This document shows, piece by piece, positions 3,230 to 25,762 of a stretch of 64,000 nt of DNA (the stretch's first letter is position 1; each line of letters opens with the position of its first letter). This DNA is from Patescibacteria group bacterium (GTDB lineage: Bacteria > Patescibacteriota > Microgenomatia > UBA8517). A program made the position numbers and the translations under genes. The notes beneath the pieces are model-generated. The model was given only the letters and a program-made list of their open reading frames with translations, did not search any database and was not told the origin of the DNA. The stretch spans positions 145,255 through 209,254 of the forward strand of contig DATDRP010000006.1 in the NCBI GenBank assembly GCA_035291665.1. The letters are read 5' to 3'.

Positions 3230-3746
3230 GCTTTGGAGAAGGAGTGATCGCCACGTTCAGTTAACATGAACGTGGAGGAAAGTCCAGGCAGCAGTAAGAA
3301 GGGAACGGAGCGTAAGCTCCGACTGGAAGCCAGCTTAGCTGGTGAACAGCTGGTGTCTTTGGTTTGTGAAAATAAACTAAGAACCGAATCTGAATTGACA
3401 GATTTGGAGAGTCACAGAGACGATCCTTCGGTTAAACTTGAGGAATTACGACATTAATCAGCAAGTAACTTTGCGATAGATGACTAATCCTTAGGCACAT
3501 TGAAGGGGTGAAACGCTGATAATCCCACCCGCTGCAACCTCCGACTATCCCACCCTTTTTATTTTTTATAAAGTAAAAAGACAAAGCAGCTTACCTGAAA
3601 TTTATTAGGAATGATAGAAATATCAATTCAATAAAGGCGGGATGAAGCTTGAGGGCAGTCCTGATTAATTCGGGACAACTCCGATTTAATCGGAGTTAGA
3701 CAGATGATCACTTAGAAACAGAACCTGGCTTACTATTCTCCAAAGC
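3230..3746 (+). ncRNA. rnpB: RNase P RNA (bacterial type), unusually long
   Basis: Conserved GGAGGAAAGTCCAGGC (about 3274-3289), GGGGTGAAACGCTG (about 3505) and ACAGAACCTGGCTTAC (3717-3732). The P1 helix pairs CTTTGGAGAA (3231-3240) with TTCTCCAAAG (3736-3745). Confidence 0.88.
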
Positions 3747-3752
3747 CTTAAG

Positions 3753-3821: not shown

Positions 3822-3843
3822 TTACTATTCTCCAAAGCCTTAA
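3822..3843 (+). repeat. Duplicate of the rnpB 3' end (copy of 3730-3751)
   Basis: Exact 22-mer TTACTATTCTCCAAAGCCTTAA occurs at 3730-3751 and 3822-3843. Both copies are followed by AAACCC and a hairpin. Confidence 0.85.
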
Positions 3844-3870
3844 AAAACCCCGATGGAGTCGGGGTTTTTT
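3844..3870 (+). terminator. Second Rho-independent terminator
   Basis: CCCCGA - TGGAG - TCGGGG stem-loop followed by TTTTTT. Confidence 0.6.
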
Positions 3871-3900
3871 AGTTGCAAGGAAGGATGTTAAAATTAAGTT

Positions 3901-4189: not shown

Positions 4190-5869
4190 ATGTTATTGTC
4201 GAATGACAAACTTAAGAAGATACTTGTCGGGTCCGGATATATTACGGAACCCGATTTTGATAACGCCGTACAAAGTGCCACTGACCTGGGAAAAGACGTC
4301 TCTGACATCCTGATCTTCAGAGGATTAATCAGCGAGGATGCACTGGGTAAACTAATTTCCCAGCACTTCAATATTCCATACGTTGACGTACGGAGAATGT
4401 TTATATCAACAGAAATCCTGAAGCTGATTCCTGAGAAGTTGGCCAGGGTGTATCGAATGATTCCTTTTGAACTTACGGGGAAAAAACTTAAGGTTGCAAT
4501 GGAAAACCCTGAGGATTTTGAGGGTTTGGAATTCGCAAAACGTCAAACTGGTTTTGAGGTTGAACCGTATTTTGCAAGGTCGGAAGATATTTCAAAAGCG
4601 CTTGGACAATACAAAAAGAATCTGAAAAGCGACTTTGAGAAAATTATTTCTGAAAACCTGAAAAAAGCCAGTGTCAGCGGTAATTTGGAAAAAGCGGCAG
4701 AGGATGTTCCCATTGTTAAAATTTTAAACACAATTTTTGAATATGCTGTTGCTGCTAGGGCTTCCGATATACATATTGAAACACAAACAGATGATGTTGT
4801 AGTCAGATTCAGAATAGATGGAGTTTTACGGGACATCATAAAGTTTCAGCGCGGTATTGAAGAAGCAATTATTGCCAGAATCAAGATTCTTTCTAATTTA
4901 AAAATTGACGAACATCGTATTCCTCAGGACGGAAGATATAAATTCAATATTGATGACGAAGTGGTCGCACTTCGTATTTCTATAATCCCCGGATTTGTTG
5001 GGGAAAACGTTGTCATGAGAATTCTTCGCGAGACCAACCGGCCGTTGAGTTTTGAAGAGCTGGGTATAACCGGAAAAGGCTTGAAAATTCTTAGAGATAA
5101 TACTTCAAAACCACACGGAATGATTCTTGTCACGGGTCCGACCGGATCCGGAAAAACTACGACTCTCTACTCCGTTTTGAATGTCTTAAATACAATTGAA
5201 GTTAAGATCTGTACAATTGAAGATCCGATTGAGTACGGAGTTAACCGAGTAACTCAAATTCAGGTAAATCCAAAAACAGGATTAACTTTTGCCTTAGGCC
5301 TTCGGGCTTTAATGAGACACGACCCGGATATTATTATGGTTGGAGAAATCCGCGATCAGGAAACAGCAGAAATAGCAATTCATTCTGCTTTGACGGGACA
5401 TCTGGTATTATCCACCCTGCACACAAATACGGCATCCGGCGCAGTACCCCGGCTTTTGGACATGGGTGCAGAACCGTATCTTTTGGCTTCAACTCTGAAT
5501 CTGATCGTGGCGCAAAGACTGGTTCGGAGGATTTGCCAGACATGCATTACAAAATACCAACCCGATCCGGAAATAATAAAGCGCATCGAGAAGGATCTTG
5601 GAGCAGACTATATAAAAATAAAATTTTATAAAGGCAAAGGTTGCGATGAGTGTAATAATAAGGGCTATTCAGGACGGGTTGGCATATATGAAATACTACC
5701 CGTTACAGAAAAACTACGGGAAGTAATTTCAAAAAAACCATCTTCCGAAATGCTTGAAGATCAGGCATTAAAGGAAGGGATGGTTTCAATGCTTCAGGAC
5801 GGAGTTGATAAGGTTTCAGCAGGACAAACGACTATTGAAGAAGTCTTTAGAGTAGCAAGCGAAGATTAA
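4190..5869 (+). CDS. pilB: Type IV pilus assembly ATPase (GspE/PilB family)
   Basis: N-terminal T2SSE_N-like domain, Walker A GPTGSGKTTTLY, Walker B IIMVGEIRD, His box GHLVLSTLHTN, and the tetracysteine CQTC...CDEC. Confidence 0.9.
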   Translation: MLLSNDKLKKILVGSGYITEPDFDNAVQSATDLGKDVSDILIFRGLISEDALGKLISQHFNIPYVDVRRMFISTEILKLIPEKLARVYRMIPFELTGKKLKVAMENPEDFEGLEFAKRQTGFEVEPYFARSEDISKALGQYKKNLKSDFEKIISENLKKASVSGNLEKAAEDVPIVKILNTIFEYAVAARASDIHIETQTDDVVVRFRIDGVLRDIIKFQRGIEEAIIARIKILSNLKIDEHRIPQDGRYKFNIDDEVVALRISIIPGFVGENVVMRILRETNRPLSFEELGITGKGLKILRDNTSKPHGMILVTGPTGSGKTTTLYSVLNVLNTIEVKICTIEDPIEYGVNRVTQIQVNPKTGLTFALGLRALMRHDPDIIMVGEIRDQETAEIAIHSALTGHLVLSTLHTNTASGAVPRLLDMGAEPYLLASTLNLIVAQRLVRRICQTCITKYQPDPEIIKRIEKDLGADYIKIKFYKGKGCDECNNKGYSGRVGIYEILPVTEKLREVISKKPSSEMLEDQALKEGMVSMLQDGVDKVSAGQTTIEEVFRVASED

Positions 5870-5877
5870 AAAAGCTT

Positions 5878-7086
5878 ATGCCCTTATTTACATACAAAGT
5901 TAAAAATAAAAAAGGAGAATTAATTGAAGATGTCATTCAAGCTGCGGACAGTAAGGATGTCCAGTCTAACCTTCAAGCTGAAGGTTATCAGATTTTGACC
6001 ATCAGAAGGTTGGACTCAAAATTAAGCAGCCTCTCAGCAGGTGGAATTTCAATTTCAGAAAAAGCCGCCTTTTGCAGATTTTTGGCAACCATGTTGCGGG
6101 CGGGTCTTCCGCTTCCTGAAGCAATCGACATCATAAAAGATGATACGAAAAATCGTAAACTTAAAAAAGTACTTTTTGATATCGCATATGAAATTCGAAA
6201 AGGGAAAACCATGTCATCAGTATTGTCAAAGTATAAACGGGATTTTGACCCTGTTTTTCTGACGATGGTTAAGGCAGGAGAAGAATCAGGAACGATTGAT
6301 AAAAGCTTCGATTATCTCGCCAAACAATTATTAATGACATATGAACTAATTCAAAAAGTGAAAGGTGCGATGATGTACCCGATAGTTATAGTTGCTGCTA
6401 TGGGGGCAAATTTTGTTGTCATGCTTGTTTTTGTTTTGCCGAAACTTTCCAATGTTTTTCTTCAATTAAATGTTGAATTGCCTCCTGCCACCCGATTTGT
6501 GATGGAAACCGGCCAATTCATTGGCGACAATACGGTATTAGTTTTGGGAATTTTAATCGGTTTATTGGTTATAGGTTTTGTTCTTTTTACAGTTCAAAAG
6601 ACCCGGGATGCTATAACAGACTTTTTCATGCGCCTTCCTGCAATAAAAGATTTAATTATTCAGATTGACGTTGCCAGGTTTTCAAGAACACTTTCAACAC
6701 TTCTTCGAAGCGGAGTACCGATTATGGTCTGCCTGGAAGTTTGTGCAAATATCATGCGTCAGCCGGCACTCAAGAAACAGGCAAAACTTTTCGGTGAAAA
6801 AGTTGCTGAAGGAAAACAGCTTTCTGAAGTAATTGTAGGAGGTAGTAAAGCGTTTCCGTCAACTGTAATTCAAACAATTAAAGCAGGAGAAAAAAGCGGA
6901 AGTCTGGAAGATGTTCTGGAGGAAATGGCTGAATTTTATGAGAGGGAAGTCGATTACAATCTGAAGAAATTGACGTCTTTACTGGAACCTCTTTTGATGT
7001 TGGTTATCGGGGTAGCGGTGGGTGCGATGGTAATAATTATGATAACACCGATTTATTCTCTGGTCGGCGGGCTTGATAAGTTCTAA
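5878..7086 (+). CDS. pilC: Type IV pilus platform protein (GspF/PilC family)
   Basis: Two T2SSF-type repeats and three TM segments. The 402-aa size and the position directly after pilB fit PilC. Confidence 0.9.
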   Translation: MPLFTYKVKNKKGELIEDVIQAADSKDVQSNLQAEGYQILTIRRLDSKLSSLSAGGISISEKAAFCRFLATMLRAGLPLPEAIDIIKDDTKNRKLKKVLFDIAYEIRKGKTMSSVLSKYKRDFDPVFLTMVKAGEESGTIDKSFDYLAKQLLMTYELIQKVKGAMMYPIVIVAAMGANFVVMLVFVLPKLSNVFLQLNVELPPATRFVMETGQFIGDNTVLVLGILIGLLVIGFVLFTVQKTRDAITDFFMRLPAIKDLIIQIDVARFSRTLSTLLRSGVPIMVCLEVCANIMRQPALKKQAKLFGEKVAEGKQLSEVIVGGSKAFPSTVIQTIKAGEKSGSLEDVLEEMAEFYEREVDYNLKKLTSLLEPLLMLVIGVAVGAMVIIMITPIYSLVGGLDKF

Positions 7087-7136
7087 ACGATTCGGTTCAA
7101 AATTCAATACCCCTCCGAATATATATAAAATTTCTC

Positions 7137-7853
7137 ATGAAGGAAGAAAAAGAAATTGATATCAGAAAATTGTTAAGCAATCCGGTTTATATTGTTTTGA
7201 TTGTAATTGGTTTAATCATAATTATTTTTGTTGTTTATATATTAGTCGGAAGAAATAGGAGTCTTAATGACGCACCGATAAAAGAAGGCCAAATCATGAT
7301 TCAAAAAGGAGACGAAGTTATCACAATTAATAGCAACGGACTTGTGGAGTATAAATCGAAAGACAAAGTCTATTATGAAACCTGGGATACCTCAAGAATA
7401 TCTTCATTTTTTACGCTGATTGAAAATAAAGCCCGTGAATCTTTAAAAAATCCGGATCAGAAAAAATGCGTATATAAAATTTATCTTTTCCTTGACGGAA
7501 AACTGGTTAATTTCTGTACAGATGACGAAGAAATTGCGGATACAGTTGAGGAAATATCTAACAAATATTCGGAAGAAGATCTTAGCGGTTACTTTCAGGA
7601 CGGGGAGGGATCTGGTGGAGACGGTGATGAGGATTTTGATGGTACGATTCATTTTCCTACACCAACACCCACAATTTCATTGATCTCACCTGTCCCGACA
7701 CCGACATCAACTCAATCCTCCGGCGGATCACAAACAAATTATCCGCCAGTGAATGCCGGCTGCGATACATGGAGTGTGAGTATTGTCGGGGGAAGAGCTG
7801 TAATTTCGAATACCTACTGCACAACCCAGCCAACGGCCACCCCGACGCCCTGA
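7137..7853 (+). CDS. Hypothetical membrane-anchored protein with Pro/Thr-rich C-terminus
   Basis: N-terminal TM (VYIVLIVIGLIIIIFVVYILV), an acidic Gly-rich segment, then PTPTPT-type tracts. No family recognised. Confidence 0.6.
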   Translation: MKEEKEIDIRKLLSNPVYIVLIVIGLIIIIFVVYILVGRNRSLNDAPIKEGQIMIQKGDEVITINSNGLVEYKSKDKVYYETWDTSRISSFFTLIENKARESLKNPDQKKCVYKIYLFLDGKLVNFCTDDEEIADTVEEISNKYSEEDLSGYFQDGEGSGGDGDEDFDGTIHFPTPTPTISLISPVPTPTSTQSSGGSQTNYPPVNAGCDTWSVSIVGGRAVISNTYCTTQPTATPTP

Positions 7854-7864
7854 CGTTATTGTTC

Positions 7865-9295
7865 TTACTGGGCTTTTTCTTCAGTCCAGGATATGAATTC
7901 GTACTGACCCGAAGTTGGAAAATAAGGTGGAGGATTGTATAAAACATTTGTATCGTAATTGATCTCCCTCTGACGGAATCCGGACTCCGGACCTTCGCCG
8001 AAATTCCAATAGGACTTGAAATAAGATATGACTGAACCGTTTAATATTAGTTTTTGTTTAACAGCCTCATCCGTTCCCCCGCACCAATTGAAATAACCGT
8101 GACGTATTATTGTTCCCTGTTGTGTTAAAAGTACACCGTCGACCTGAAACTCCTCGGGTACGCTTCTTGTAAAATAAATATCGTTTTGGGATACGATACC
8201 GATAACATCGCTGCCGTCGTAGGCGGTATATTTTATGCTATTTGGTATATATATTACTGAACTGCTCGATTTGAGGGGAAAATCAACTGCAGCTACTGTA
8301 AGTCTTCCCCTGACCGTTCCTTCAATCCACAAGTCATCTTCAGCAAAAATAATCGGGACATCAACTACATTATAAGTACCCAAGAAGGTTTCGGAGCCAA
8401 TAATCTGGTAACTTTTCCGGCATCCTCCTATTCCGAATTCACCCAATCCCTGTCCGGGAACTGAATAAGCTTTCGTATAATCCGTAGAAATAACTTTATT
8501 AATTCTGACCGTTCCGTCACTCAGAAATAGTAAGTGATAGCCATCCGCGTTTGAATTATCAAGGTATAGTCCGTCGGATTTTGCGAAGTTTCTCATGTTT
8601 GAAAAGTCAACCGCAACGCTGTCAAAATCAACAAATGGAACGGGAAATTGCCAAAGTGCCTGGTCCCCGCCGGATCCCCATACACCATCCTTCGGTTCCG
8701 GGGGGTGACAGCCGGTCTCAGACCCGCACATGTATTCAAGCTGGGCACTGGAGACTATGGACGTATTTGTTCCATCCATTCTTATACCGTTGTTTGAATG
8801 TATTTTTCCGTTGACAACTGATCCTGATCCATACCAAGTACTTCCGTTTGACAAGAAAGAATAGATCGCCATTGAGGGAATTCCGTATTGAGCTTTAATT
8901 TTACGTTTTATTTTTGGATATTGATCGCTCCACGCAGTTGATTCGATGGTGACTATGGTTGAACCCTCCTGTGGAGGTGTTATTTCTAGGCTGTAATATC
9001 CCATTAAGGTTCCTTGGGGATCTTTGTATTCATGAACAAACGGGCCGTAGGGTACAGGTGTCACAGGAGTTCCCGTGCCATCGGTAAAATCATCAGGATC
9101 ATGTGCAAGATGCCATTTATAGTAATTTATACCGGCTTCTGAAATATTGAGGGCGCGTTCAGATGCAATTTGCCTGTTTGAGCTGTCGACTTGAACACCC
9201 AAAACGAACAACATGCCATAGATTATTATTATGAACGAGGCCGTAATAATAAGAATGGCCGGTGTTGCAAAACCGTTGTGTGTATTTTTTAACAT
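7865..9295 (-). CDS. Large pilus-associated protein with PilX_N-like N-terminus
   Basis: N-terminal hydrophobic helix followed by RALNISEAGINYY, as in PilX N-terminal domains. It is the last gene of the pseudopilin operon. 476 aa. Confidence 0.6.
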   Translation of the reverse strand: MLKNTHNGFATPAILIITASFIIIIYGMLFVLGVQVDSSNRQIASERALNISEAGINYYKWHLAHDPDDFTDGTGTPVTPVPYGPFVHEYKDPQGTLMGYYSLEITPPQEGSTIVTIESTAWSDQYPKIKRKIKAQYGIPSMAIYSFLSNGSTWYGSGSVVNGKIHSNNGIRMDGTNTSIVSSAQLEYMCGSETGCHPPEPKDGVWGSGGDQALWQFPVPFVDFDSVAVDFSNMRNFAKSDGLYLDNSNADGYHLLFLSDGTVRINKVISTDYTKAYSVPGQGLGEFGIGGCRKSYQIIGSETFLGTYNVVDVPIIFAEDDLWIEGTVRGRLTVAAVDFPLKSSSSVIYIPNSIKYTAYDGSDVIGIVSQNDIYFTRSVPEEFQVDGVLLTQQGTIIRHGYFNWCGGTDEAVKQKLILNGSVISYFKSYWNFGEGPESGFRQREINYDTNVLYNPPPYFPTSGQYEFISWTEEKAQ

Positions 9296-9345
9296 TTTCT
9301 GGTTTACATTAAGTATAAAATAATTGCAAACGTATAGGATGCTAG

Positions 9346-9957
9346 CTAAAGGTTATCTTTTAACATCCTGATGTTTGATATTGATTCAACTTCATAACCA
9401 TTAGCGGTATCACCGTTTTTGACAAGGAGATAAATTTTTACACTTCTGGTATCAGCAAGTCGATTAGTCATCCCGAGGGGGTTATTGATAATATCTTCCG
9501 GCCAATCGGCGTTGTAATAGTAAAAAACGGGAGTTTCGTTATAGATATTTTCGTTAAGCGTAATTACTGTTTCTGTATCCTGGTTATACTGTGCAGGATA
9601 ACCGGAAGGTTCAATAACACCTTTGTATAAATTGTGTTCATTTAAAAAATAACGGACTTTTTCTGTGCTTCCGTCAAGATCGATATCGGAGTAAAAACCG
9701 ATACTTTGGTCATCTACGTTGAACAAAGAATATGCTCCGTTGTCGCTGGTTTTTGCAGCCCGAATCTCTTTTATAAAAGTTGAAATAATCAAGTTTGCCT
9801 CATCAACGGATTTATAGCTTCTGGTTACCAGTATTTGGTTTTGGGTAAGAATATATTGAAGAGATACCAAACCAATTCCGATAAATGACAGGATTGTTAC
9901 GGCAATTAAAACCTCGATTAAAGAAATTCCTTTTTGTTTTGTTTTTATAGACATCAT
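9346..9957 (-). CDS. Minor pilin / pseudopilin (prepilin-type N-terminal methylation domain)
   Basis: KQKG|ISLIEVLIAVTIL class III signal with Glu at +5. Confidence 0.75.
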   Translation of the reverse strand: MMSIKTKQKGISLIEVLIAVTILSFIGIGLVSLQYILTQNQILVTRSYKSVDEANLIISTFIKEIRAAKTSDNGAYSLFNVDDQSIGFYSDIDLDGSTEKVRYFLNEHNLYKGVIEPSGYPAQYNQDTETVITLNENIYNETPVFYYYNADWPEDIINNPLGMTNRLADTRSVKIYLLVKNGDTANGYEVESISNIRMLKDNL

Positions 9958-11297
9958 TAAATTGGACTTAGGACAATAGTTTCATTTTTATACCCGTAGA
10001 CATCAACTGTTCCGTTAAAGTTGAAATATCCTGATTTGGTAGCTTCGATTGAATAAATTTTTTTCTGCAGGTCCGAAAAAAAGACTTGACCAAAATCAAT
10101 ATTATCTTCAAGTCCGCTCGAAGCAGTGGCATTGAAAACTGGTGCCGTATTATATAAACGTGCGGAAACTGAGGCGATCTGGTTTTCAGATGGATCTAGA
10201 AAAGTGATTAACACACTGTCGCTTGTATGATCTGTGACTGCAAAATTAACAGTATTTACGGTATCCGCAAGAACTTTTATCGGCAGGAACGGGTTAATAG
10301 CTTCAATGTCTCCGACGGAAGAATCTATTGTGATATGGTAGTTGTCCCACTCCAAATCCGGTAATTGAAAATGACCGGATGCGTCGGTAGCGAATTGTTC
10401 AGTATATTTATAAATCGGTTGATCGCTAGTATCTGTTCCGATAGTTTTTTCTCCCTGTATGGTGAATTCAACATTGCCTAAGGCTCCAAAACCGCTGACT
10501 GCGTCATCATGGGAAAATACATCTAATGTGCTGGTTTTATCAATGGAGAAAGAAATTTCTGTTAGCTGTCCCTGGAGTACGGTAAGATTAGGTTTGTTGG
10601 GATTTTCAACCTCTGTGGGAGAATAAGTCTGTTCTGAACTGTATCCCGATTTCGAAGTTAAGACTTGATAGCAAGGTGTTGTACAAACTGGAGCACCGGG
10701 TAAAATTACCCGACCGTTATCTGCTGTTAAAAGTGTCACATCTATTTGAGGAGTTGTGGTTGTTGCAATAATGTGTACGCTGGCTTGGTTTACAGGCTGA
10801 GCGTCGGAGTTTATAACGATGATGGATAAAGTTCCTCCGGTAACTGTTGATTCAATACCCGATGGCGATATGTCAGTAACCAACCTGATCGGGTTTCTTT
10901 GAGAGGTGATTTGCCCTTCCCATGAGGCATCAATTGTAATTCTTTTGTAATCAGTTGCCAATAAATCTGCCGGTGCTTGCTGGTCGAACGGATCATCAAT
11001 ATAAAGGATTGTTGTTTTAATATAATAATTTGCACCGTTGATATTTATCGTTTCATTCTGAGGAATATTACCCGGGGGAATTCCTCCGATTGTGCCGATA
11101 GAATCATAAGGGAGATTTCTTATCGTCTCCATCTTTTCTTGAGCGAGGTGTTTTGCATTAATACGGGAACTGTTATAGGTACTCACAGAATAAGAAGTTG
11201 TAACAAGAGTAAAAAGCGCCTGAGCAAGAATCGAAAATAAGGCTAACGAAATCAAAACACTTATCAAAACAGATCCTCTACTGACAATAGATTTCAT
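9957..11297 (-). CDS. Pseudopilin-like protein with beta-sandwich (carboxypeptidase-regulatory-like) repeats
   Basis: MKSIVSRGSVLISVLISLALFSILAQ resembles a PilV-type N-terminus but has Ser instead of Glu at +5. The ATG at 11297 is preferred. The ORF-track start at 11423 adds 42 aa that overlap a repeat and likely promoter DNA. Confidence 0.55.
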   Translation of the reverse strand: MKSIVSRGSVLISVLISLALFSILAQALFTLVTTSYSVSTYNSSRINAKHLAQEKMETIRNLPYDSIGTIGGIPPGNIPQNETININGANYYIKTTILYIDDPFDQQAPADLLATDYKRITIDASWEGQITSQRNPIRLVTDISPSGIESTVTGGTLSIIVINSDAQPVNQASVHIIATTTTPQIDVTLLTADNGRVILPGAPVCTTPCYQVLTSKSGYSSEQTYSPTEVENPNKPNLTVLQGQLTEISFSIDKTSTLDVFSHDDAVSGFGALGNVEFTIQGEKTIGTDTSDQPIYKYTEQFATDASGHFQLPDLEWDNYHITIDSSVGDIEAINPFLPIKVLADTVNTVNFAVTDHTSDSVLITFLDPSENQIASVSARLYNTAPVFNATASSGLEDNIDFGQVFFSDLQKKIYSIEATKSGYFNFNGTVDVYGYKNETIVLSPI

Positions 11298-11427
11298 GGG
11301 CAGGTACATTGATATAAAGTATAGCATTTGGCATAATGGTAGAAAGAAGATGCTCAAAACTATTGTTTTGGACGTTTTGGTTTGGTTAGAAAAAATATAA
11401 TTAGGTAGTATGGTTATTTTCAAATTT

Positions 11428-11453
11428 CTTAATATCTTAGTATCTTAATATCT
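11428..11453 (+). repeat. CTTAATATC-type 26-nt repeat (partner at 1161-1186)
   Basis: CTTAATATCTTAGTATCTTAATATCT lies in the divergent intergenic region of the pilus locus. Confidence 0.65.
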
Positions 11454-11468
11454 AATGCAAGTCCTGCC

Positions 11469-12863
11469 ATGGTAAGAAGATCATTCGTTTCAATATATTT
11501 CTTGAATAGTCAGTTCCAGCTGGTTATTCTTTCCGGATCAAAGAAAAAAGTTCAAAAGTATACAACGATTGATTTACCCGAAGGACTGATTTTGAATCAT
11601 GAAGTTCAAGATCCGAAACTCCTTGGTGAAATTCTTAAGAAAGTTTGGGCTAAATACAAAATCAAAGAAAAAAGTGTGGGAATAGTCGTTCCGGAGTTTT
11701 CCACATTCACAAAAAGCTTTAACCTGCCCGATCTTGCTGAAGACGAACTTGATGAAGCAGTAAGATGGCAATCATTAGACTATATTCCGTTGAATCAAAA
11801 TGAGATGGTGCTGGATTGGAAGGTAATTAAACGTACGGAAGCTTCTGTTCAGGTGTTGGCAGTTGCAATAAAGGACAATATTCTCAAAGGTTATGTTGAT
11901 GCAACAGCCCTAGCCGGTCTTTACCCCTTAGTTGTTGAAACACCTTCAATTTCCCTGACGCGTATTAGCGGTGAGAAGGGTGAAAAAATTATTATATTTT
12001 TCTCATTCGATGAAGTTATTATTGTCTTGGCTGATGGCCAAAGTATAATTTCGAGTTCGGTGCTGCATTCCTCCGCTTCGGCACAGGACATCGTACGGAC
12101 CTCCCAGCGGATGACTGCACACTATCAGGATATTTCCATCAAAGAAGTTTATCTTGGAGGTGTAATTTCATCTCAGGAAATTGTTAATCAAGTGGTAACG
12201 GGCTTAAACCTCAAAGCGGTAAAAATTGGGATTAAGGAAATTTCATTTAATGACTCGGAACTTCAAAAATATCTGATTCCGATTTCGCTTCAATTCAAAG
12301 ATCCTGCTGAACCATCAAGTTCAGAAACAATTAACTTATTGCCGGGCGCCGTTGTTTCAAAATATGAAAAGAAAAGATTAAGTGTTCAACTTTGGAGTTT
12401 GATGATGATTACGACTGTGATAATAGTCGTAAGTTTTTTAGCACTTCTGGGAAGTTATATGTACATTATTCAGAACCAGTCTTTTTACAACAATAAAAAT
12501 GAATCCGAAGTTGCAACGTACGGGAAAAACAAAGACGCATTGGAACAGATAAAAACCATCAATTTATCGTCCGATAGGGTTAAAAGTATTTTTAATCTTA
12601 TGCTGTATCCGCAGGATGTTTTAAACCTTGTAAAGAGTGCTGATCAGGAAGGTATACGTGTGATAAATTATAAAATTGATTTTGAAAAAAGGACAGCGCT
12701 CATACAGGGTGTTGCATCAACCAGAGATAATTTGCTGGATTTTAAAACCAGCCTGGAAAAAATGGAAGGAATTTCCGAAGTAAAGCTTCCCCTTTCAAGT
12801 TTTGAAAAAGAAACGGATTTAGAATTCAATATTTCGTTTACGTTTTTGCGTCAAAAAAAATAA
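11469..12863 (+). CDS. pilM: PilM-like actin-fold protein fused to a PilN-like TM/periplasmic segment
   Basis: N-terminal region typical of PilM (GIVVPEFSTFTKSFNLPDL..DELDEAVRWQSLDYIPL). A TM helix (LWSLMMITTVIIVVSFLALLG) follows INLLP, as in PilN. Confidence 0.7.
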   Translation: MVRRSFVSIYFLNSQFQLVILSGSKKKVQKYTTIDLPEGLILNHEVQDPKLLGEILKKVWAKYKIKEKSVGIVVPEFSTFTKSFNLPDLAEDELDEAVRWQSLDYIPLNQNEMVLDWKVIKRTEASVQVLAVAIKDNILKGYVDATALAGLYPLVVETPSISLTRISGEKGEKIIIFFSFDEVIIVLADGQSIISSSVLHSSASAQDIVRTSQRMTAHYQDISIKEVYLGGVISSQEIVNQVVTGLNLKAVKIGIKEISFNDSELQKYLIPISLQFKDPAEPSSSETINLLPGAVVSKYEKKRLSVQLWSLMMITTVIIVVSFLALLGSYMYIIQNQSFYNNKNESEVATYGKNKDALEQIKTINLSSDRVKSIFNLMLYPQDVLNLVKSADQEGIRVINYKIDFEKRTALIQGVASTRDNLLDFKTSLEKMEGISEVKLPLSSFEKETDLEFNISFTFLRQKK

Positions 12864-12869
12864 ATTAAT

Positions 12870-13487
12870 ATGAATGGAAAAAAGAGTGATGAACAACAAT
12901 TGAAAGCTAATAACAGCGGTGAACGGGATATGAAGCAGGTTAAAGAGAAAGTTCAAAAACCGAAAAAGACGATAAATTTTCTTTTGGTCTTCCTCTTTAT
13001 TAACTTGATTATTTTATTGGGCTCTTTATATCTGATTTATGATCTGCCTCGAAAGGCTGAGGTTTTGAAATCCGCAAAAATCGAAGCATTAAAGATTGAA
13101 GAAAGCAGCAAGGTGGATTTAACAGGTCTAGAGATAATCCAAAATAAAAAAAACTGGGAAATATTAAAAAGCTATTTCCCGGATGAAGTTGGTGTTATCA
13201 AATTTATTACCGATCTGGAAACTTTGAAGAAGAATGAAATTATTAAGGACATGTCATTCGTCAGCCAGGATGCCGTTAGGGATAAAACCGGAGCTTTGGG
13301 AATTCCGTTTATAATGGAAATTGAAGGAAGTTGGGACAAAGTAGACGCAGCTTTAAAGGATTTTTATGATTTACCGTATTTGGTGAGAGTGATTAATGTT
13401 GACGCAACTGTCCTTGAGGATGGGAGTGTAAACTTTAAATTTGGGGGTTTTATATATGTCTCAGAGAGCCTTGACAAAAATAGATAG
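12870..13487 (+). CDS. PilO-like bitopic membrane protein (assigned by position)
   Basis: Single N-terminal TM followed by a soluble domain, located between pilMN and the pilin. No strong motif. Confidence 0.4.
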   Translation: MNGKKSDEQQLKANNSGERDMKQVKEKVQKPKKTINFLLVFLFINLIILLGSLYLIYDLPRKAEVLKSAKIEALKIEESSKVDLTGLEIIQNKKNWEILKSYFPDEVGVIKFITDLETLKKNEIIKDMSFVSQDAVRDKTGALGIPFIMEIEGSWDKVDAALKDFYDLPYLVRVINVDATVLEDGSVNFKFGGFIYVSESLDKNR

Positions 13488-13689
13488 TTTTTTCTTTCTG
13501 TTCATTGGGGTAATGATAGTATTGGCTATCTTTGTTGTTGTGGCTTTCAAGGAAATATTTTCATCCATTCGAACGAGTTCCGATGTGACCGTTTCACTTT
13601 CGGAAAATGAATTGAAAGTTGATAAAAATAAATTACAGGAAGCTGTAAGTTTGATTGAATCTAAGGATGTTGTAGAATTAAAAAAGTAA
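13456..13689 (+). CDS. Small bitopic membrane protein
   Basis: ATG at 13456. TM segment FFFLFIGVMIVLAIFVVVAF. Overlaps the upstream gene end and abuts the pilin start. Confidence 0.4.
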   Translation: MSQRALTKIDSFFFLFIGVMIVLAIFVVVAFKEIFSSIRTSSDVTVSLSENELKVDKNKLQEAVSLIESKDVVELKK

Positions 13690-14147
13690 TGAAAAATAAA
13701 TTTAAAGCCTTTACTTTAATTGAACTTTTGATTGTAATTTCGATTATCGGACTACTGGCAACAACAATGGTCATTGCCATTAACCCTTCAAAACAATTAG
13801 CAAAAGCCAGGGATGGACAGAGAGAAGGTGATGTCTATTCAATTTTTTCCTATGTTCAGCAATACAAATCAGAACACAATGGAACATTACCCGATACTGA
13901 CGGAGATCCGGAAACGAATAATTTTCCCACAAGCTTGACTTGTATTGGATCGTCGGGAGGGTGCTTTAACCTTGCAGGAGCCGGTGACGATGATGAATCA
14001 ATAGTGCCTGACTATGCAGCAGCGCTCCCAACTGATCCGAAGACAGGAAGTGGAGTAAATACAGGTTATTTGATTATGGTTGATGCTTATGGCCACATTA
14101 CCGCATCCGCCTCAGGTGAAACAAAGACAATCAGCATAACGAGGTAG
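13689..14147 (+). CDS. pilA: Type IV pilin (candidate major pilin)
   Basis: MKNKFKA|FTLIELLIVISIIGLLA prepilin signal with Glu at +5, and a C-terminal Cys pair (CIGSSGGC). Confidence 0.85.
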   Translation: MKNKFKAFTLIELLIVISIIGLLATTMVIAINPSKQLAKARDGQREGDVYSIFSYVQQYKSEHNGTLPDTDGDPETNNFPTSLTCIGSSGGCFNLAGAGDDDESIVPDYAAALPTDPKTGSGVNTGYLIMVDAYGHITASASGETKTISITR

Positions 14148-14304: not shown

Positions 14305-15165
14305 GTGGGAAATTTCTTTAAACGGGTAATGAATGAATTGGTCTATGGAGGCCATCTGCTGTCTTTAGGGGCTTCCGGTATTGTTTGGTCGGTAATACTT
14401 CTGAACGGATCGGATGGCGGATTCCCAATAGTAGTTTTAGCATATTTGATTTCACAACTGGTTTATAACATTGACCATTTGAAAGAAGAGAAGATTGTTA
14501 GTAGTCAAGGAAACGCCGAGAGGACTTCTTACTTGGAGAAAACAAGAAAAAAACAAGTATTTGCGTTAATGATATATGTCGCTTTATTCATAGCCTTTGG
14601 AGTCTTATCTCCTCTTCCGGTTTTTCTTTTATCATCCTCAATAGTTCTGGGAGGGATCCTTTATACATTGAAACTAAAAAAGATGATGAAAGAAATTGTC
14701 GGTTTAAAAAATATCTATATATCCTTTTTTTGGGGTGTTTTAAGTTTTTTGGTACCTTTGTATTATTTCCTTAATCCGCTGAACCCGGTTTTTATATCGA
14801 TTTCATTATTCATTTTTCTTAGATGGATTGTTAATTCAACCTTTTTTGATTTGAAAGATATTGAAAGCGATAAAAAAATTAACATAAAAACCCTACCAGT
14901 AGTTTTTGGATTTACAAAAACAATAAATTATTTACATCTCTTTAATATATTTTCCGGATTAGCTCTTATATTATTTGTCTATTTTTCTGTTTTACCGACA
15001 TATACCATTGTTTTATTATTTTTATGGATATACAGCATGTTTTATCTTGCCAGAGCTAAGTATTTAACTGATAAAGATTTACGCAGTTTGTCTTATATTG
15101 TTGTTGATGGTGAATATATTTTATGGCCATTCGCCATATTAATTGGGAAGTACCTGTTTGAATAG
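14305..15165 (+). CDS. UbiA-family prenyltransferase
   Basis: Polytopic membrane protein with an N/D-rich first motif (YNIDHLKEE) and a second motif (FFDLKDIESDKK). GTG start. Confidence 0.65.
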   Translation: MGNFFKRVMNELVYGGHLLSLGASGIVWSVILLNGSDGGFPIVVLAYLISQLVYNIDHLKEEKIVSSQGNAERTSYLEKTRKKQVFALMIYVALFIAFGVLSPLPVFLLSSSIVLGGILYTLKLKKMMKEIVGLKNIYISFFWGVLSFLVPLYYFLNPLNPVFISISLFIFLRWIVNSTFFDLKDIESDKKINIKTLPVVFGFTKTINYLHLFNIFSGLALILFVYFSVLPTYTIVLLFLWIYSMFYLARAKYLTDKDLRSLSYIVVDGEYILWPFAILIGKYLFE

Positions 15166-15170
15166 TATTT

Positions 15171-16766
15171 ATGAATACAAATATTTTCGTCCAGATTGTA
15201 CTGGTATCGATTAATGCATTTGGGTTAGTCCTCGCCTGGTGGATTCTTCGTGGCGGAAACTCTAAACAATTGAAATTATGGTTCTCTCTTATGACAATAT
15301 TTATACTTTTGTGGGCTAATTTTTCTTATTTTGGTTCGACCGCCAGGAGTGTGTCTACTGGACTATTGTTTTACAGATTAAATTGGGCGGCGGTTTCGTT
15401 ATTTCTACCGTCATTTTTTTATTTTTTTGTAATTTATTTTCTTCTCAAAAGCCACTTGGCTAGTAAAATCGGAATTATAATATTTATTTTATCAATAATA
15501 TTTTTTATTCTTTCGCTTTTTACAGGATTGATTATTAAAGATGTAGTTCAACAAAGCTGGGGTATGGGGATAGTATTCGGACCCCTTTCTGATTATTTCA
15601 ATATCTTCTCAGCAATAGTTGCCATAATTGTTATTACCTATAGTGTGCAAAGTTATAAATCATTATCTAAAGAAATGAAAGTGAAACTAAATTATTTTCT
15701 GGCTGGTATTTTTGTCTTTATAACTGCAAATTTGGTATTTAATGTTGGCTTACAAGTAATTTTCCAGAGTGTAAGATTTCAAATCTATGGAGATTTTTCT
15801 GCGATATTCTTTTTAGTTTTTACAGCCTATGCGATCGTGAAGTATGAACTTTTTGATATAAAAATTATCGCAACTGAAGGTTTAACAGCAGTATTATGGA
15901 TAGTCTTACTTGCTAAAACGTTTGTATCAGAATCTCCGGTACAACTACTAATAAATATTCTTATATTTCTTTTAACCGTAATTTTCGGAGTGCTTTTAAT
16001 AAAAAGTGTCACGCGTGAGGTTAAACAAAGACAACTTCTCGAAGAACTCAATAAAAAGTTGAAAGAGCTTGACAAACAGAAAGATGAATTTGTGAGTATG
16101 GCGGCTCACGAACTTCGTTCCCCGTTAACCGCCATCAAAGGATATGTTTCGATGATTATGGAAGGCGATACAGGTGATATTCCCGAAAAAGCCAGACAAT
16201 ATCTTGCCGATAGCATGGCGGTTACTGACCGGCTTGTTCGTTTGGTCAATAATATGCTCAATGTTTCAAGAATAGAGGAAGGACGGATTGTTTATCAGAT
16301 GGAAGAGACCCATCTTATACGTGCCGTTCAGGAGGTTTATTATTCGTATCGGATTGAAGCAGAAAGAAAAGGGATTGAAATTGTAATGAATATACCCAAC
16401 GGTTTGGATGATGTTGTGTACGTGGACCCCGACAGAATTCGTGAGGTGATCGGGAATATAGTAAGTAATGCTGTAAAGTTTACGGAAAAAGGGAAAATTG
16501 AAATTTCAATAGGGAATCCCCGGAAGGGTGTGGTCAGGGTGGATGTTTCCGACACAGGTCCCGGAATTACCGAAGAAGAGCAAAAAAAATTATTTGTAAA
16601 GTTTTATCGTGCAGAGTCTACAGCCGGTAAAACTTTCGGTACCGGACTCGGGCTTTATATAACAAAGCTTCTGATTGATAATTTCGGTGGTGTGATCGGA
16701 GTTGAGTCACAAATTGATAAAGGAACAACCTTCTGGTTTGAATTACCTGTCAGAAAGCAGGTATAA
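15171..16766 (+). CDS. Sensor histidine kinase with polytopic N-terminal sensor
   Basis: About 8 TM segments, then H-box SMAAHELRSPLTAI, N-box NAVKFT, G1 DTGPGI and G2 GTGLGLYI. Confidence 0.9.
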   Translation: MNTNIFVQIVLVSINAFGLVLAWWILRGGNSKQLKLWFSLMTIFILLWANFSYFGSTARSVSTGLLFYRLNWAAVSLFLPSFFYFFVIYFLLKSHLASKIGIIIFILSIIFFILSLFTGLIIKDVVQQSWGMGIVFGPLSDYFNIFSAIVAIIVITYSVQSYKSLSKEMKVKLNYFLAGIFVFITANLVFNVGLQVIFQSVRFQIYGDFSAIFFLVFTAYAIVKYELFDIKIIATEGLTAVLWIVLLAKTFVSESPVQLLINILIFLLTVIFGVLLIKSVTREVKQRQLLEELNKKLKELDKQKDEFVSMAAHELRSPLTAIKGYVSMIMEGDTGDIPEKARQYLADSMAVTDRLVRLVNNMLNVSRIEEGRIVYQMEETHLIRAVQEVYYSYRIEAERKGIEIVMNIPNGLDDVVYVDPDRIREVIGNIVSNAVKFTEKGKIEISIGNPRKGVVRVDVSDTGPGITEEEQKKLFVKFYRAESTAGKTFGTGLGLYITKLLIDNFGGVIGVESQIDKGTTFWFELPVRKQV

Positions 16767-16778
16767 TTACAACACAGT

Positions 16779-17207
16779 ATGATGCAGGATGATTCTCAAG
16801 GATTGGGAGCACCCGCGGTTACAATACCGCAGTCGCAGGACCGTAAAAAAATTCTTCTTATCGAAGACGATCCGTTTCTTCTTCAAATGTATAATGACAA
16901 ATTTGTTAATGAGGGATATGAGGTAAATGTTGCCCATGATGGACTCGAAGGGCTAAAAATGCTCAATGAGAAGCAGGTGGACTTGGTACTTTTGGATATT
17001 TTGATACCGAAACTTTCGGGAGTTGATTTATTGACCAAAATAAAAGAAGACCCGAAGTTGCAAAAAATGCCGATTATTGCCCTTACCAATCTTTCAAACG
17101 TAAAAGAGGAACAGGATGTCAAAGCAAAGGGTGTGAATGAATATTTAATAAAATCTGATTATACCCCCACGCAAGTTGTTGAAATTGTGAAGAAATATCT
17201 CCCGTGA
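16779..17207 (+). CDS. Receiver-only response regulator (CheY-like)
   Basis: ILLIEDD...DLVLLDILIPKLSG...ALTNL...KS receiver signature. 142 aa with no output domain. Confidence 0.85.
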   Translation: MMQDDSQGLGAPAVTIPQSQDRKKILLIEDDPFLLQMYNDKFVNEGYEVNVAHDGLEGLKMLNEKQVDLVLLDILIPKLSGVDLLTKIKEDPKLQKMPIIALTNLSNVKEEQDVKAKGVNEYLIKSDYTPTQVVEIVKKYLP

Positions 17208-17242
17208 CAGCCTTTTTTAGAAAGTGAGTCTTAAATGGAAAT

Positions 17243-17848
17243 TTACTTCGGACGCGTGAGAACAAAAACCAAACCAATTATTGCGACGAGAGCAAGACCC
17301 GATGCAAGTCCCGCCCGCTTTAACCCGAGTATAACTTTATCGCGAACTGAGGATTTTTCAGGTGTTGGTGTGGGGGATTCTTGACTTTCTTCACCTGTTG
17401 CTTCGGGATTCTCCGGGAGATTTTCGGTTGGCTTTTCCAAAAACGTAATTGGCTTGACACTCCCTCTCATAACAACTTCACCCGCAGGTAGTTTAGTTTT
17501 TGCATTTTTTTCAGTTGTGATAAAAAGACTTGCAAAAGGAACTTTTGATACGTATTCACCCTTGCCAAGTCCGATTTGCCCAAGTGCGAAGGGATCGCCC
17601 CCGGCTACCGGGTTTGCCCAGAGAATATAGGTGTATATCGATCCATCAACCGGGTAAAGGATGTTTCGGCATGAAACAATTACACGGTATGAACCGGTTT
17701 GCATTTGTAGTGATGCGGCGAAACATTTGTAATCAAGTTCTGTGGTACTGCGAAGTTCAAAAGTGCCATCGGATGCATGAACGACCGTAAACCCTAAGAG
17801 TAAATATATAGAAAAACCAAAAATGAAGGTTTTTAAAATTTTTAACAT
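17243..17848 (-). CDS. Hypothetical secreted protein with C-terminal TM anchor
   Basis: N-terminal signal-like helix and C-terminal TM (LALVAIIGLVFVL). The YILWANPVAGGDPFALGQIG segment is reminiscent of RskA-type anti-sigma C-domains (weak). Confidence 0.5.
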   Translation of the reverse strand: MLKILKTFIFGFSIYLLLGFTVVHASDGTFELRSTTELDYKCFAASLQMQTGSYRVIVSCRNILYPVDGSIYTYILWANPVAGGDPFALGQIGLGKGEYVSKVPFASLFITTEKNAKTKLPAGEVVMRGSVKPITFLEKPTENLPENPEATGEESQESPTPTPEKSSVRDKVILGLKRAGLASGLALVAIIGLVFVLTRPK

Positions 17849-17954
17849 ATTATTAATTTCTTAAGATTTATTTTATCAAAATATATTCCAAAATAACACT
17901 AATTAGTATTAATTGGTAACTCGACCGAGACAGCATTTTCAAATTTTTGTAGAA

Positions 17955-17983
17955 TTGAAAACAAGCACTGGTTGCTTTAAGAT
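17955..17983 (+). promoter_or_regulatory. Putative promoter TTGAAA-17 nt-TAAGAT, 8 nt before the ATG
   Basis: Hexamers at 17955-17960 and 17978-17983, ATG at 17992, no Shine-Dalgarno sequence. Confidence 0.35.
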
Positions 17984-17991
17984 GTACATAT

Positions 17992-18423
17992 ATGCCTGAT
18001 CCTGTCCAACAGACCCCAGCGCCCGTTCCCGGAAAAACTGTAGATGTCAGAAACATCCCCAACCTTCTTCTGGTTGAAGATGATCCTGTGCTTTCGAAAA
18101 TGTACACCGAAAAATTTAAATTCGAAGGTTTTAATGTATTAACCGCCATGAACGGAGAAGACGGATTGAGGCTTGCACTATCAGAAAATATTGACCTTAT
18201 AATATTAGATCTGATGCTTCCCCGGTTGTCAGGAAGTGAACTTTTAGCAAAGTTGCGTCAGGATGCAAAAGGCAGAAATACAAAAGTAATTGCTCTGACA
18301 AACCTGGCCGAACAAGAAGAAAGGCAAAAAGTTATGCAGCTTGGAGTTCTGGATTATCTAATAAAAGCGATGCAAACTCCGGAAGAAGTGGTGGAAAAAG
18401 TAAAAAAGTACCTCAGTACATAA
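17992..18423 (+). CDS. Receiver-only response regulator (paralog of 16779-17207)
   Basis: LLLVEDD...DLIILDLMLPRLSG...ALTNL...KA. 143 aa. Colinear with the other receiver, including the C-terminal VEKVKKYL. Confidence 0.85.
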   Translation: MPDPVQQTPAPVPGKTVDVRNIPNLLLVEDDPVLSKMYTEKFKFEGFNVLTAMNGEDGLRLALSENIDLIILDLMLPRLSGSELLAKLRQDAKGRNTKVIALTNLAEQEERQKVMQLGVLDYLIKAMQTPEEVVEKVKKYLST

Positions 18424-24229: not shown

Positions 24230-25762
24230 ATGTTGGCAAAAATTTCTTCCGGGGCAACGGTGGGACTTAATGCAACACTCATTGATGTTGAAGTAGATAT
24301 TGCAAATGGCTTACCGACTTTTACTATAGTTGGGCTTCCTGATAAGGCAGTAGAGGAAAGCCGCGAACGTGTCCGCTCCGCTCTGAAAAATTCCGGCGCA
24401 GACTTTCCGATGAGCAGGATCACAGTCAATCTGGCACCTGCCGATCTTCCGAAAGCCGGTCCTGCATATGACCTTCCGATTGCTTTAGGGATATTGATTG
24501 CGTCTGAGCAAATAAGACCGGATGTCAAGAAATATTTATTTTATGGTGAGCTTTCATTGGACGGCAACCTCCGCCATACAAACGGAATATTACCTTTGGC
24601 GTATTTGGCCAAAGAGAAGAAGTTTGACGGCGTTTTTATACCCAGAATTAATGATCAGGAAGCCTCTGTAGTGAGAGGAATAAAAGTTTATCCCGTAGAA
24701 TCTCTTCTTGAGCTGGTAAGATTTTTCAGCGGAACTGTAAAAATTATACCTTCCAAGCAAATTTCATTATCGAGTCTTCTGAAAACAGTTGAAGCAGAAT
24801 TCGATTTTTCAGAAATTATAGGTCAGGAACAAGCCAAACGGGCAATGGAAATTGCCGCGGCAGGGAACCACAACATCTTTATGAAAGGTTCGCCCGGTTC
24901 CGGAAAAACCATGCTATCCCGGGCGCTTCCGGGAATTTTGCCGGTTCTAACTGAAGACGAAGCCCTGGAAGTAACAAAAATTTATTCGATAACGGGGAAT
25001 CTTCCTCCCGGACAGGCGATCGTTACAACCCGGCCATTCCGTAGCCCTCATCACACCACCAGCAGGATAGGGCTAATTGGAGGAGGAACAAATCCGTCAC
25101 CCGGCGAGGTTTCGCTCGCACATCGAGGAGTTTTATTTTTGGATGAGTTTCCCGAATTCCCAAGGAATGTTTTGGAATCCCTGCGTCAGCCGATGGAGGA
25201 TGGGATTGTGACAATCTCGCGGGCAAAAGGAACAGTTTCATATCCGGCGAAATTTTTACTGGTTGCAGCATCAAATCCATGTCCTTGCGGCTATTTTGGC
25301 GATGCCAAAAGACGCTGTAAATGTCTTCCTGGAACGATTTCCCGATATCAAAAAAGAGTTTCAGGACCGATTCTCGACCGGATCGATATTCATGTTTCGG
25401 TTCCAAGCGTTGATACACAAAAACTTATTGACATCAAGAGTAACAGCAAGAGCAAGAGTTCAAAAGAAATACAAGAAAAAGTTCAGAAAGCAAGAGACAT
25501 TCAGATAAAAAGGTTTAGAGGAACGAGAATAAGATCAAATGCAGAGATGAGTACAAAAAATGTCAAAGAGTTGGCTCCCCTATCTCAAGAATGTCGTACA
25601 ATGATGATATCTGCAACTGCAACAATGGATTTGACCGCAAGATCGTATTTTAAAGTTGTGAAGATTACCCGGACGATCGCCGACTTGGAAGGTGCAACCG
25701 ACATTTCCACAACCCATTTGGCTGAAGCTCTTCAATACCGTCCGATGCAGGACGATTTTTAA
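24230..25762 (+). CDS. comM: YifB/ComM family Mg-chelatase-like ATPase
   Basis: N-terminal Lon-protease-like domain, Walker A GSPGSGKT, Walker B VLFLDEFPEF, and the CxC..C.C cluster (NPCPCGYFGDAKRRCKC). Confidence 0.9.
   Translation: MLAKISSGATVGLNATLIDVEVDIANGLPTFTIVGLPDKAVEESRERVRSALKNSGADFPMSRITVNLAPADLPKAGPAYDLPIALGILIASEQIRPDVKKYLFYGELSLDGNLRHTNGILPLAYLAKEKKFDGVFIPRINDQEASVVRGIKVYPVESLLELVRFFSGTVKIIPSKQISLSSLLKTVEAEFDFSEIIGQEQAKRAMEIAAAGNHNIFMKGSPGSGKTMLSRALPGILPVLTEDEALEVTKIYSITGNLPPGQAIVTTRPFRSPHHTTSRIGLIGGGTNPSPGEVSLAHRGVLFLDEFPEFPRNVLESLRQPMEDGIVTISRAKGTVSYPAKFLLVAASNPCPCGYFGDAKRRCKCLPGTISRYQKRVSGPILDRIDIHVSVPSVDTQKLIDIKSNSKSKSSKEIQEKVQKARDIQIKRFRGTRIRSNAEMSTKNVKELAPLSQECRTMMISATATMDLTARSYFKVVKITRTIADLEGATDISTTHLAEALQYRPMQDDF

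Follow-up and report, generated by a model that had tools for sequence, protein, structure and literature searches.

A probable secretin-less type IVa-like pilus locus with a predicted ComZ-like tip minor pilin in a Woesebacteria-like member of the Patescibacteria

Introduction

Which kind of pilus is encoded by a compact cluster of type IV pilus (T4P) genes in a Patescibacteria genome, and what would stand at the tip of this pilus? The cluster covers positions 4190-14147 (9,958 bp) of a stretch of 64,000 nucleotides, hereafter the window, taken from contig DATDRP010000006.1 (positions 145,255 to 209,254) of assembly GCA_035291665.1. Judged by its protein matches, the source is a Woesebacteria-like bacterium within the Patescibacteria, or Candidate Phyla Radiation (CPR), ultrasmall and from groundwater: exact and near protein matches are labeled Patescibacteria or Candidatus Woesebacteria, in agreement with the CPR-type origin given by a first-pass annotation of the same DNA.

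CPR have few conserved surface machines; T4P are one of them, and are essential in cultivated Saccharibacteria. The locus itself is as expected for the group, since secretin-less T4P loci are well known in CPR and there is experimental work on the system of Saccharibacteria. The tip proteins of CPR pili have so far been regarded as weakly conserved, with no known fold. What is new here, according to structure models, is the fold-level identification of members of a minor pilin trio, above all of a cap protein similar to ComZ of Thermus and, according to gene comparison, the recognition of the Woesebacteria layout as an inversion together with a pilM-pilN fusion.

Results

The pilus locus and its assembly machinery

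The locus very probably encodes the core assembly machinery of a type IVa-like pilus of the monoderm type, without a secretin and with a tip primed by a trio of minor pilins, in a CPR bacterium of the Woesebacteria lineage. The open reading frames (ORFs) and the gene order given by the first-pass annotation were confirmed. The ten ORFs are separated by gaps of -32 to +171 bp and form three transcription units: the first, on the forward strand, contains pilB, pilC and a gene for a 238-residue protein of no assigned family (U238); the second, on the reverse strand, contains three pilin-like genes in the order V446, mp203 and X476; and the third, again on the forward strand, contains a pilM-pilN fusion, a pilO-like gene, a gene for a 77-residue membrane protein and a gene for a pilin of 152 residues. 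The earlier assignments of pilB, pilC, the PilV-like, GspJ/PilW-like and PilX-like genes, pilMN, the pilO-like gene, the small TM protein gene and the pilin gene were supported, or at least not contradicted, by hidden Markov model (HMM), PDB sequence and fold evidence. Pfam scans covered every non-nested ORF of at least 110 residues in the 64 kb, and class III or pilin-type N-termini were found in four proteins of the whole window, all of them inside the pilus locus.

PilB shows a T2SSE domain (Pfam, E 9.5e-132) and an N-terminal MshEN domain (E 6e-16), with the Walker A motif at residue 316, the Asp box at 344, the Walker B motif at 381, the His box at 403 and CxxC at 449 and 485 (tetracysteine motif). 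It scores 561 bits against TIGR02538, under the equivalog cut-off of 676. PilC contains two T2SSF repeats (Pfam, E 1.6e-55), and both the GspF and the PilC models of NCBIfam match it under their equivalog cut-offs. The 464-residue protein was identified as a PilM-PilN fusion because it matches PilM_2 (E 5e-17) and the PilM chains 3jc8, 2ych and 5eou of the PDB (E 1e-10 to 1e-12), and shows in its PilN part an INLLP signature at residue 288 and a transmembrane (TM) helix at residues 310-328. The PilO-like protein matches Pfam PilO weakly on its own (E 0.036); at the family level, eight of 12 relatives match this model (best 8e-5) and the family profile matches PilO of M. xanthus with an E of 0.0045. 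The major pilin (N_methyl, E 3.6e-7) has a short leader, MKNKFKA/FTLIE (slash, cleavage site), with Ala at -1, as well as Glu5 and one Cys pair, and its N-terminus weakly matches GspG, ComGC and PilA models; its relatives show Gly or Ala at -1. HMM searches of the locus genes found T2SSE, T2SSF, PilM_2 and N_methyl, with PilO at the family level. Judged on these signatures the machinery is of the type IVa pilus type, with PilB, PilC, PilM/N/O and a class III major pilin all present.

X476, a predicted ComZ-like minor pilin

X476 has no match in Pfam or NCBIfam, and sequence and profile searches of the PDB gave nothing past the pilin helix. Its AlphaFold2 model, built with 121 sequences (predicted local distance difference test, pLDDT, 94.5; predicted TM-score, pTM, 0.88), shows a long N-terminal helix, pilin-like and without Glu5, a sheet of four strands and a large domain rich in beta-structure. 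With this model Foldseek found a sole strong match, ComZ, with an E of 9e-11 and a full-length alignment. X476 is predicted to be a GspK-like pilin joined to a triangular beta-solenoid of the ice-binding-protein type (DUF3494). The order of its secondary structure elements (sheet at residues 83-138, beta-rich region at 145-446 and last strand at 466-473) is compatible with an insertion of the solenoid before the last strand of the pilin fold. The first-pass view of this gene as PilX-like and without a family holds at the sequence level; at the fold level an assignment is possible, the predicted architecture being of the ComZ/GspK type. Likewise, HMMs placed none of the genes that had been left without a family among known T4P or Com families, whereas structure does so, in part, for X476. 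Structure prediction of the minor pilins resolved the folds of X476 and V446.

ComZ of Thermus thermophilus is a GspK-like pilin with an inserted ice-binding-protein-type solenoid and without Glu5, binds the GspI-like pilin PilA2 and DNA, and has been argued to sit at the pilus tip (PDB 6qvi and 6qvf; Salleh et al. 2019, PMC6561018). X476 resembles it in the helix lacking Glu5, the GspK-like sheet and the triangular solenoid, and the genes of both proteins share a cluster with the gene of a GspI-like pilin. However, the host of ComZ has a PilQ secretin to pass while the host here is apparently monoderm, with no PilQ in the window; the GspI-like partner here carries three additional immunoglobulin (Ig)-like domains; and the X476 family, a candidate for DNA binding, is acidic. 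The searched literature showed no relevant link between ComZ and Patescibacteria, co-mentions being unrelated microbiome papers.

The X476 family is large and extends over several CPR lineages: it comprises 787 clusters at 50% identity, and a word index gave 2,769 matches, the best 120 of which show 57-80% identity. Across Woesebacteria, X476 identity ranges between 55 and 70%, near that of PilC (54-74%) and above those of PilM-N and PilO; in the ten more distant CPR loci described below it is 29-37%. The motifs AEAGINYYKWHLAH and HSNGGIRMDG are near-invariant, and one Cys pair (190/196) is conserved; these motifs and the Cys pair could form a metal- or ligand-binding site. In the family, the near-invariant segments lie at residues 52-69 (AEAGINYYKWHLAHxPxD) and 166-175, and are rich in Glu, His and Asp.

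V446, mp203 and the proposed GspI-J-K-type trio

V446 is predicted, from an alignment of database homologues only, to have a GspI/PilV-like pilin fold at its N-terminus followed by three Ig-like (CnaB/transthyretin) domains. As in X476, its N-terminal helix is pilin-like and lacks Glu5, and in this genome the protein shows Ser at +1 and +5. Its gene starts at 11297 (the JGI call, 446 residues) or at an in-frame ATG at 11309; the longest ORF, 9957-11423, has a wrong start because this start lies inside the gene's own conserved extended -10 promoter. The third protein, mp203, shows a canonical prepilin signal, G/ISLIE, and an N_methyl match (E 1.9e-6), and the signal is found in 15 of the 15 family members; N_methyl and gene position make it a candidate minor pilin of the GspJ/PilW position.

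The folds of two of the three proteins, the gene order and the Glu5 pattern fit a GspI-J-K-type priming and tip complex, and by comparison with GspIJK, ComZ-PilA2 and cyanobacterial PilX such a complex is their most likely role. All cyanobacterial PilX proteins have been reported to share the ComZ-like architecture and to act, as proposed, as a "tip plug" (bioRxiv 10.64898/2026.02.12.705559).

Several points weigh against this interpretation of the locus. The globular part of mp203 found no match in PDB sequence and profile searches, and a Pfam scan of its family found no domain. Processing of V446 by PilD is uncertain because of the Ser residues at +1 and +5, and the contact among V446, mp203 and X476 is predicted by analogy. 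Between X476 and ComZ there is no detectable sequence similarity, with 12-14% identity in structural alignments, and global TM-scores are low (~0.3), because domain orientation and loops differ; an insertion of the solenoid before the last pilin strand is a possibility given by the secondary-structure order. Furthermore, PilB, PilC and PilM all score under the NCBIfam equivalog cut-offs, and PilD and PilT were not located in the window, so that the pilus is a putative one and may or may not retract.

Conservation of the locus across CPR

A scan of species-representative genomes with the X476 protein gave 20 related loci: ten of the Woesebacteria type and ten from more distant CPR, titled in their records as Paceibacterota, Magasanikbacteria and others. 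The V446-mp203-X476 order, which is the I-J-K order, is kept in all 20. The Woesebacteria-type loci share a backbone of pilB-pilC, three pilin genes on the opposite strand, and pilMN-pilO with a pilin gene, so the arrangement described by the first-pass annotation recurs in ten other loci of this type. Four of the ten distant loci have the trio directly 3' of pilB-pilC and in the same orientation, and in four the trio is followed by pilM; pilM and pilN are visibly separate in three, and a small TM protein follows pilO in two. Since the trio is collinear with pilB-pilC in four other CPR loci, the divergent minor pilin unit is, on gene order, an inversion in the Woesebacteria lineage of a cluster widespread in CPR. 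By the same comparison, the pilM-pilN fusion and U238 are features of Woesebacteria-type loci.

The titles of third-party annotation (TPA) records of metagenome-assembled genomes look unreliable and should not be used for taxonomy. Two loci titled "uncultured Gammaproteobacteria" encode pilus proteins 68-79% identical to those of the window, and two more with this title contain CPR pilin genes at ~35% identity. Orthology of X476 with PilX1 of TM7x is not claimed: a query with the X476 homologue from a locus titled "Saccharibacteria" gave labeled matches to Portnoybacteria or generic Patescibacteria, and none to Nanosynbacter. "Saccharibacteria" titles may be wrong because relatives of a protein from one such locus carry these labels.

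Search for secretin, PilP, PilD and PilT

The absence of secretin, PilP, PilD and PilT genes from the window, reported by the first-pass annotation, was borne out by the Pfam scans and by a BLASTP search of PilB against all window ORFs. No secretin family (PilQ/GspD) matched any scanned ORF, PilP is not encoded within the 64 kb, and neither the window nor the ~2 kb that precede it showed a PilD (Peptidase_A24). Nor does the window encode an unexplained multi-TM protein of PilD size, the unassigned multi-TM proteins not being PilD-like. In the 20 related loci no PilD was noticed in the BLAST and ORF listing, in which no Peptidase_A24 model was run. No second T2SSE protein that could be PilT was found in the window, nor within 10 kb in the 20 related loci. 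Upstream, the ~2.1 kb that adjoin the window contain only recA, recX and rny (RNase Y). We propose that the secretin is missing because the envelope is monoderm.

Proposed assembly and function

In the proposed mechanism, a prepilin peptidase encoded elsewhere would cleave the leaders of the major pilin (A/FTLIE) and mp203 (G/ISLIE), and probably those of both pilins without Glu5 too. A PilB hexamer would work on the PilC platform, and the PilM-PilN fusion and the PilO-like protein, possibly with the 77-residue protein, would form the alignment or stator ring. The divergently transcribed trio would prime assembly and end at the pilus tip, where the X476 solenoid would act as a plug and, together with the Ig stalk of V446, as the ligand-binding end. 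X476 is in this way a concrete candidate for the tip functions of CPR pili: priming, plugging and possibly DNA capture. By analogy, the tip could bind DNA outside the cell, the ligand of ComZ, or else a surface polymer that is conserved.

If DNA were the ligand, the structure could be mainly a DNA-uptake (competence) pilus, whose ComZ-like tip would capture DNA and deliver it to ComEC for transformation or nucleotide scavenging; as the main role we consider this possible, but doubtful. ComZ, the best structural match to X476, binds double-stranded DNA and is needed for transformation in Thermus; however, cyanobacterial solenoid PilX proteins serve competence and motility pili, so the solenoid fold does not specify DNA binding. 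The conservation of X476, near that of PilC, is easier to reconcile with a universal ligand than with a receptor specific to the host, while the family is acidic (median isoelectric point, pI, of 5.3; pI below 6 in 82% of members) and only seven alignment columns are mostly Lys/Arg. Across CPR, Com genes occur widely, as do T4P, and natural competence is known from Saccharibacteria (PMC10633639). In S. epibionticum, however, T4P genes cannot be lost whereas comEC can, so that what makes the pilus essential there is something other than competence. Finally, recA-recX lies 5-6 kb upstream and a ComM-type gene 10 kb downstream, but the recA-to-pilB synteny takes in unrelated housekeeping genes.

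A host surface glycan as the ligand would correspond to a host-attachment or twitching pilus of an episymbiont, with the solenoid and the Ig-like stalk as an adhesin; as the main role we consider this just as possible, and just as doubtful. In Saccharibacteria, host binding and twitching depend on T4P (PMC11623550), but Woesebacteria have no known host, homology of X476 to PilX1 or PilX2 of TM7x could not be established, and PilT is missing from the window and from the surroundings of the 20 related loci, as given above. In pilus adhesins of Gram-positive bacteria the stalk typically contains CnaB-like domains, but X476 is far more conserved than expected of a host-range determinant.

The core T4P locus with a trio-primed tip could also be extended to a broader statement: that the trio is a tip module of the sampled CPR lineages, its solenoid cap the long-sought receptor for DNA or another universal ligand, and that the three Woesebacteria units are co-regulated through the CCTGCC box described below. 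This whole we regard as improbable; if a universal DNA receptor were true, the near-universal T4P of nucleotide-auxotrophic CPR would be tied to DNA capture.

It is very improbable that the locus encodes a type II secretion-like or ComG-like pseudopilus staying in the envelope: the GspE and GspF models score nearly as high as those of PilB and PilC, the minor pilins are GspI- and GspK-like and the PilM-PilN fusion has the domain order of GspL, but no GspC, GspD, GspL or GspM family was found, nor anything that points to an outer membrane as a barrier for secretion, the PilM_2, INLLP and PilO signatures are of the type IVa pilus type, ComGA, ComGB and ComGC match under their cut-offs, and PilM/N/O is present, which ComG operons are not known to contain. 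Pili have, moreover, been seen on CPR cells, according to the cited literature.

Comparison with known systems

As a core locus for a secretin-less T4P, the cluster shares with the T4P-1 of Saccharibacteria (N. lyticus TM7x and T4P1 of S. epibionticum; PMC11623550, PMC10633639) pilB, pilC, pilM/N/O, a small major pilin and minor pilins of the PilV/W/X type, the largest of which lacks a canonical PilD signal in both. In contrast to the Woesebacteria-type locus, that of TM7x encodes PilT and PilD; its PilX1 has been described as beta-jelly-roll-like, whereas X476 is a predicted solenoid; and the locus described here has a pilM-pilN fusion and an inverted minor pilin unit.

Cyanobacterial PilX, which has been proposed to prime assembly and act as the tip plug in organisms without PilY1, resembles X476 in its pilin fold with a bulky ice-binding-protein-like solenoid and in its PilV-family partner (bioRxiv 10.64898/2026.02.12.705559). 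Cyanobacteria are, however, another phylum, diderm and with a secretin, and X476 was likened to their PilX by description, not by sequence. The models suggest a solenoid-capped priming complex common to Deinococcota, Cyanobacteria and CPR.

The tip complex GspI-GspJ-GspK of the type II secretion system (PDB 3ci0) shows the same I-J-K gene order and a cap subunit without Glu5. GspK, however, has an alpha-domain in place of the predicted solenoid of X476, GspI is a minimal pilin of ~80 residues while V446 has 446, and no other parts of this secretion system are found here. The firmicute ComG system is a ComGA-GG operon without PilM/N/O, unlike the locus described here. The monoderm T4P of Clostridia and Streptococcus sanguinis are, as here, secretin-less and type IVa-like, with PilB, PilC and PilM/N/O. 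Their loci normally include pilD and often pilT, and their grafted modules differ (vWA, lectin).

Features of the locus

Table 1. Coordinates, strand and basis of the features described in the pilus locus; positions are those of the window.
Feature	Position	Strand	Description
CCTGCC box at pilB start codon	4183-4188	+	Motif comparison
pilB	4190-5869	+	Extension ATPase, 559 aa, T2SSE and MshEN
pilC	5878-7086	+	Polytopic platform protein, 402 aa, T2SSF x2
U238 accessory protein	7137-7853	+	238 aa, Woesebacteria-type loci only
X476 ComZ/PilX/GspK-like tip minor pilin	7865-9295	-	476 aa, predicted fold
mp203 minor pilin, GspJ/PilW position	9346-9957	-	203 aa, N_methyl, candidate
V446 GspI/PilV-like minor pilin with three CnaB/transthyretin-like domains	9957-11297	-	446 aa, predicted fold
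Divergent control region, V446 unit / pilMN	11298-11468	.	Upstream-region alignment
pilM-pilN fusion	11469-12863	+	464 aa, PilM_2 and INLLP
pilO-like bitopic protein	12870-13487	+	205 aa, PilO at family level
Small single-pass membrane protein	13456-13689	+	77 aa, between pilO and pilin gene
Major pilin	13689-14147	+	152 aa, N_methyl

Accessory genes

The first-pass annotation left U238 and the 77-residue protein without a family, and so they remain: Pfam and NCBIfam scans gave no match for either, nor did sequence and profile searches of the PDB or a Pfam scan of its family for U238. U238 shows an N-terminal TM helix, a conserved domain of ~95 residues, two linkers, one acidic and one rich in Pro and Thr, and at the C-terminus a motif bounded by Cys, and possibly spans the cell wall. 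Its relatives, found in Woesebacteria-type loci only, adjoin pilC in seven of the ten. The 77-residue protein has detectable homologues in seven of the ten Woesebacteria-type loci and sequence homologues nowhere else; two Parcubacteria-type loci show, at the same position, TM proteins of 90-98 residues that are only 13-15% identical to it.

Control signals

The divergent control region contains an extended -10 box (TGCTATACT) for the reverse-strand unit, conserved in an alignment of the upstream regions of the window and nine Woesebacteria-type loci. Scans of the locus with consensus promoters and terminators gave no more sites than in shuffled sequence. In all three units a CCTGCC hexamer sits right before the ATG of the first gene: before that of pilB, that of V446 (hexamer at 11299-11304, reverse strand) and that of pilMN (hexamer at 11463-11468, forward strand). 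Among 203 ORFs of the window and eight related Woesebacteria loci, CTGCC-N0-2-ATG marks 12 candidate starts, and all 12 belong to T4P genes. Variants are CTTGCCC/ATG at pilB (slash, start of the ATG) and ATG-CTG-CCC at V446 homologues. The box is possibly a common regulatory box of the three pilus units.

Neighboring genes

Downstream of the pilin gene, positions 14305-18423 encode a prenyltransferase of the UbiA family, a histidine kinase of the 7TM-HisKA type and two proteins that consist of a receiver domain alone. In several Woesebacteria-type loci the pilus cluster is likewise followed by genes for UbiA, the 7TM histidine kinase and receivers; a homologue of the kinase adjoins the pilus cluster in four loci of this type, with receiver genes in two, and one distant CPR locus shows a kinase and two receivers upstream of pilB. 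The kinase and receivers might control the pilus, by analogy with the single-domain regulators PilG and PilH elsewhere. The UbiA gene (14305-15165) was considered as a disguised PilD and rejected, being a clear UbiA prenyltransferase. Further downstream are the ComM-type gene, which is Mg-chelatase-like (24230-25762), and recJ (36738-38438).

Just upstream of pilB, positions 3232-3748 of the forward strand contain a divergent bacterial class A RNase P RNA with a full-length model match (76.7 bits, E 3e-23) and three large insertions. The default scan missed it because its score is below the Rfam gathering score of 100. An ORF at 3266-3457 (63 residues) was rejected as a gene, since it lies inside this RNA. 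A nearly exact second copy of the terminator and of the last ~30 nucleotides of the RNA is found at ~3824-3871. The order recA, recX, RNase Y, HU, miaA, AI-2E transporter, rnpB and pilB is wholly or largely kept across five Woesebacteria-type loci. It is probably plain synteny and not a link to competence; the recA/recX neighborhood was rejected as evidence for competence because it belongs to a long housekeeping synteny block.

At 55167-59597 of the forward strand, the window encodes a secreted protein of 1,476 residues with several long Pro/Thr-rich linkers, a weak beta-propeller match and a C-terminal repeat region; the linkers account for a local peak of ~47% in guanine and cytosine content. 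Pro/Thr-rich linkers of this kind are also found in U238 and in a 201-residue protein encoded at 17243-17848.

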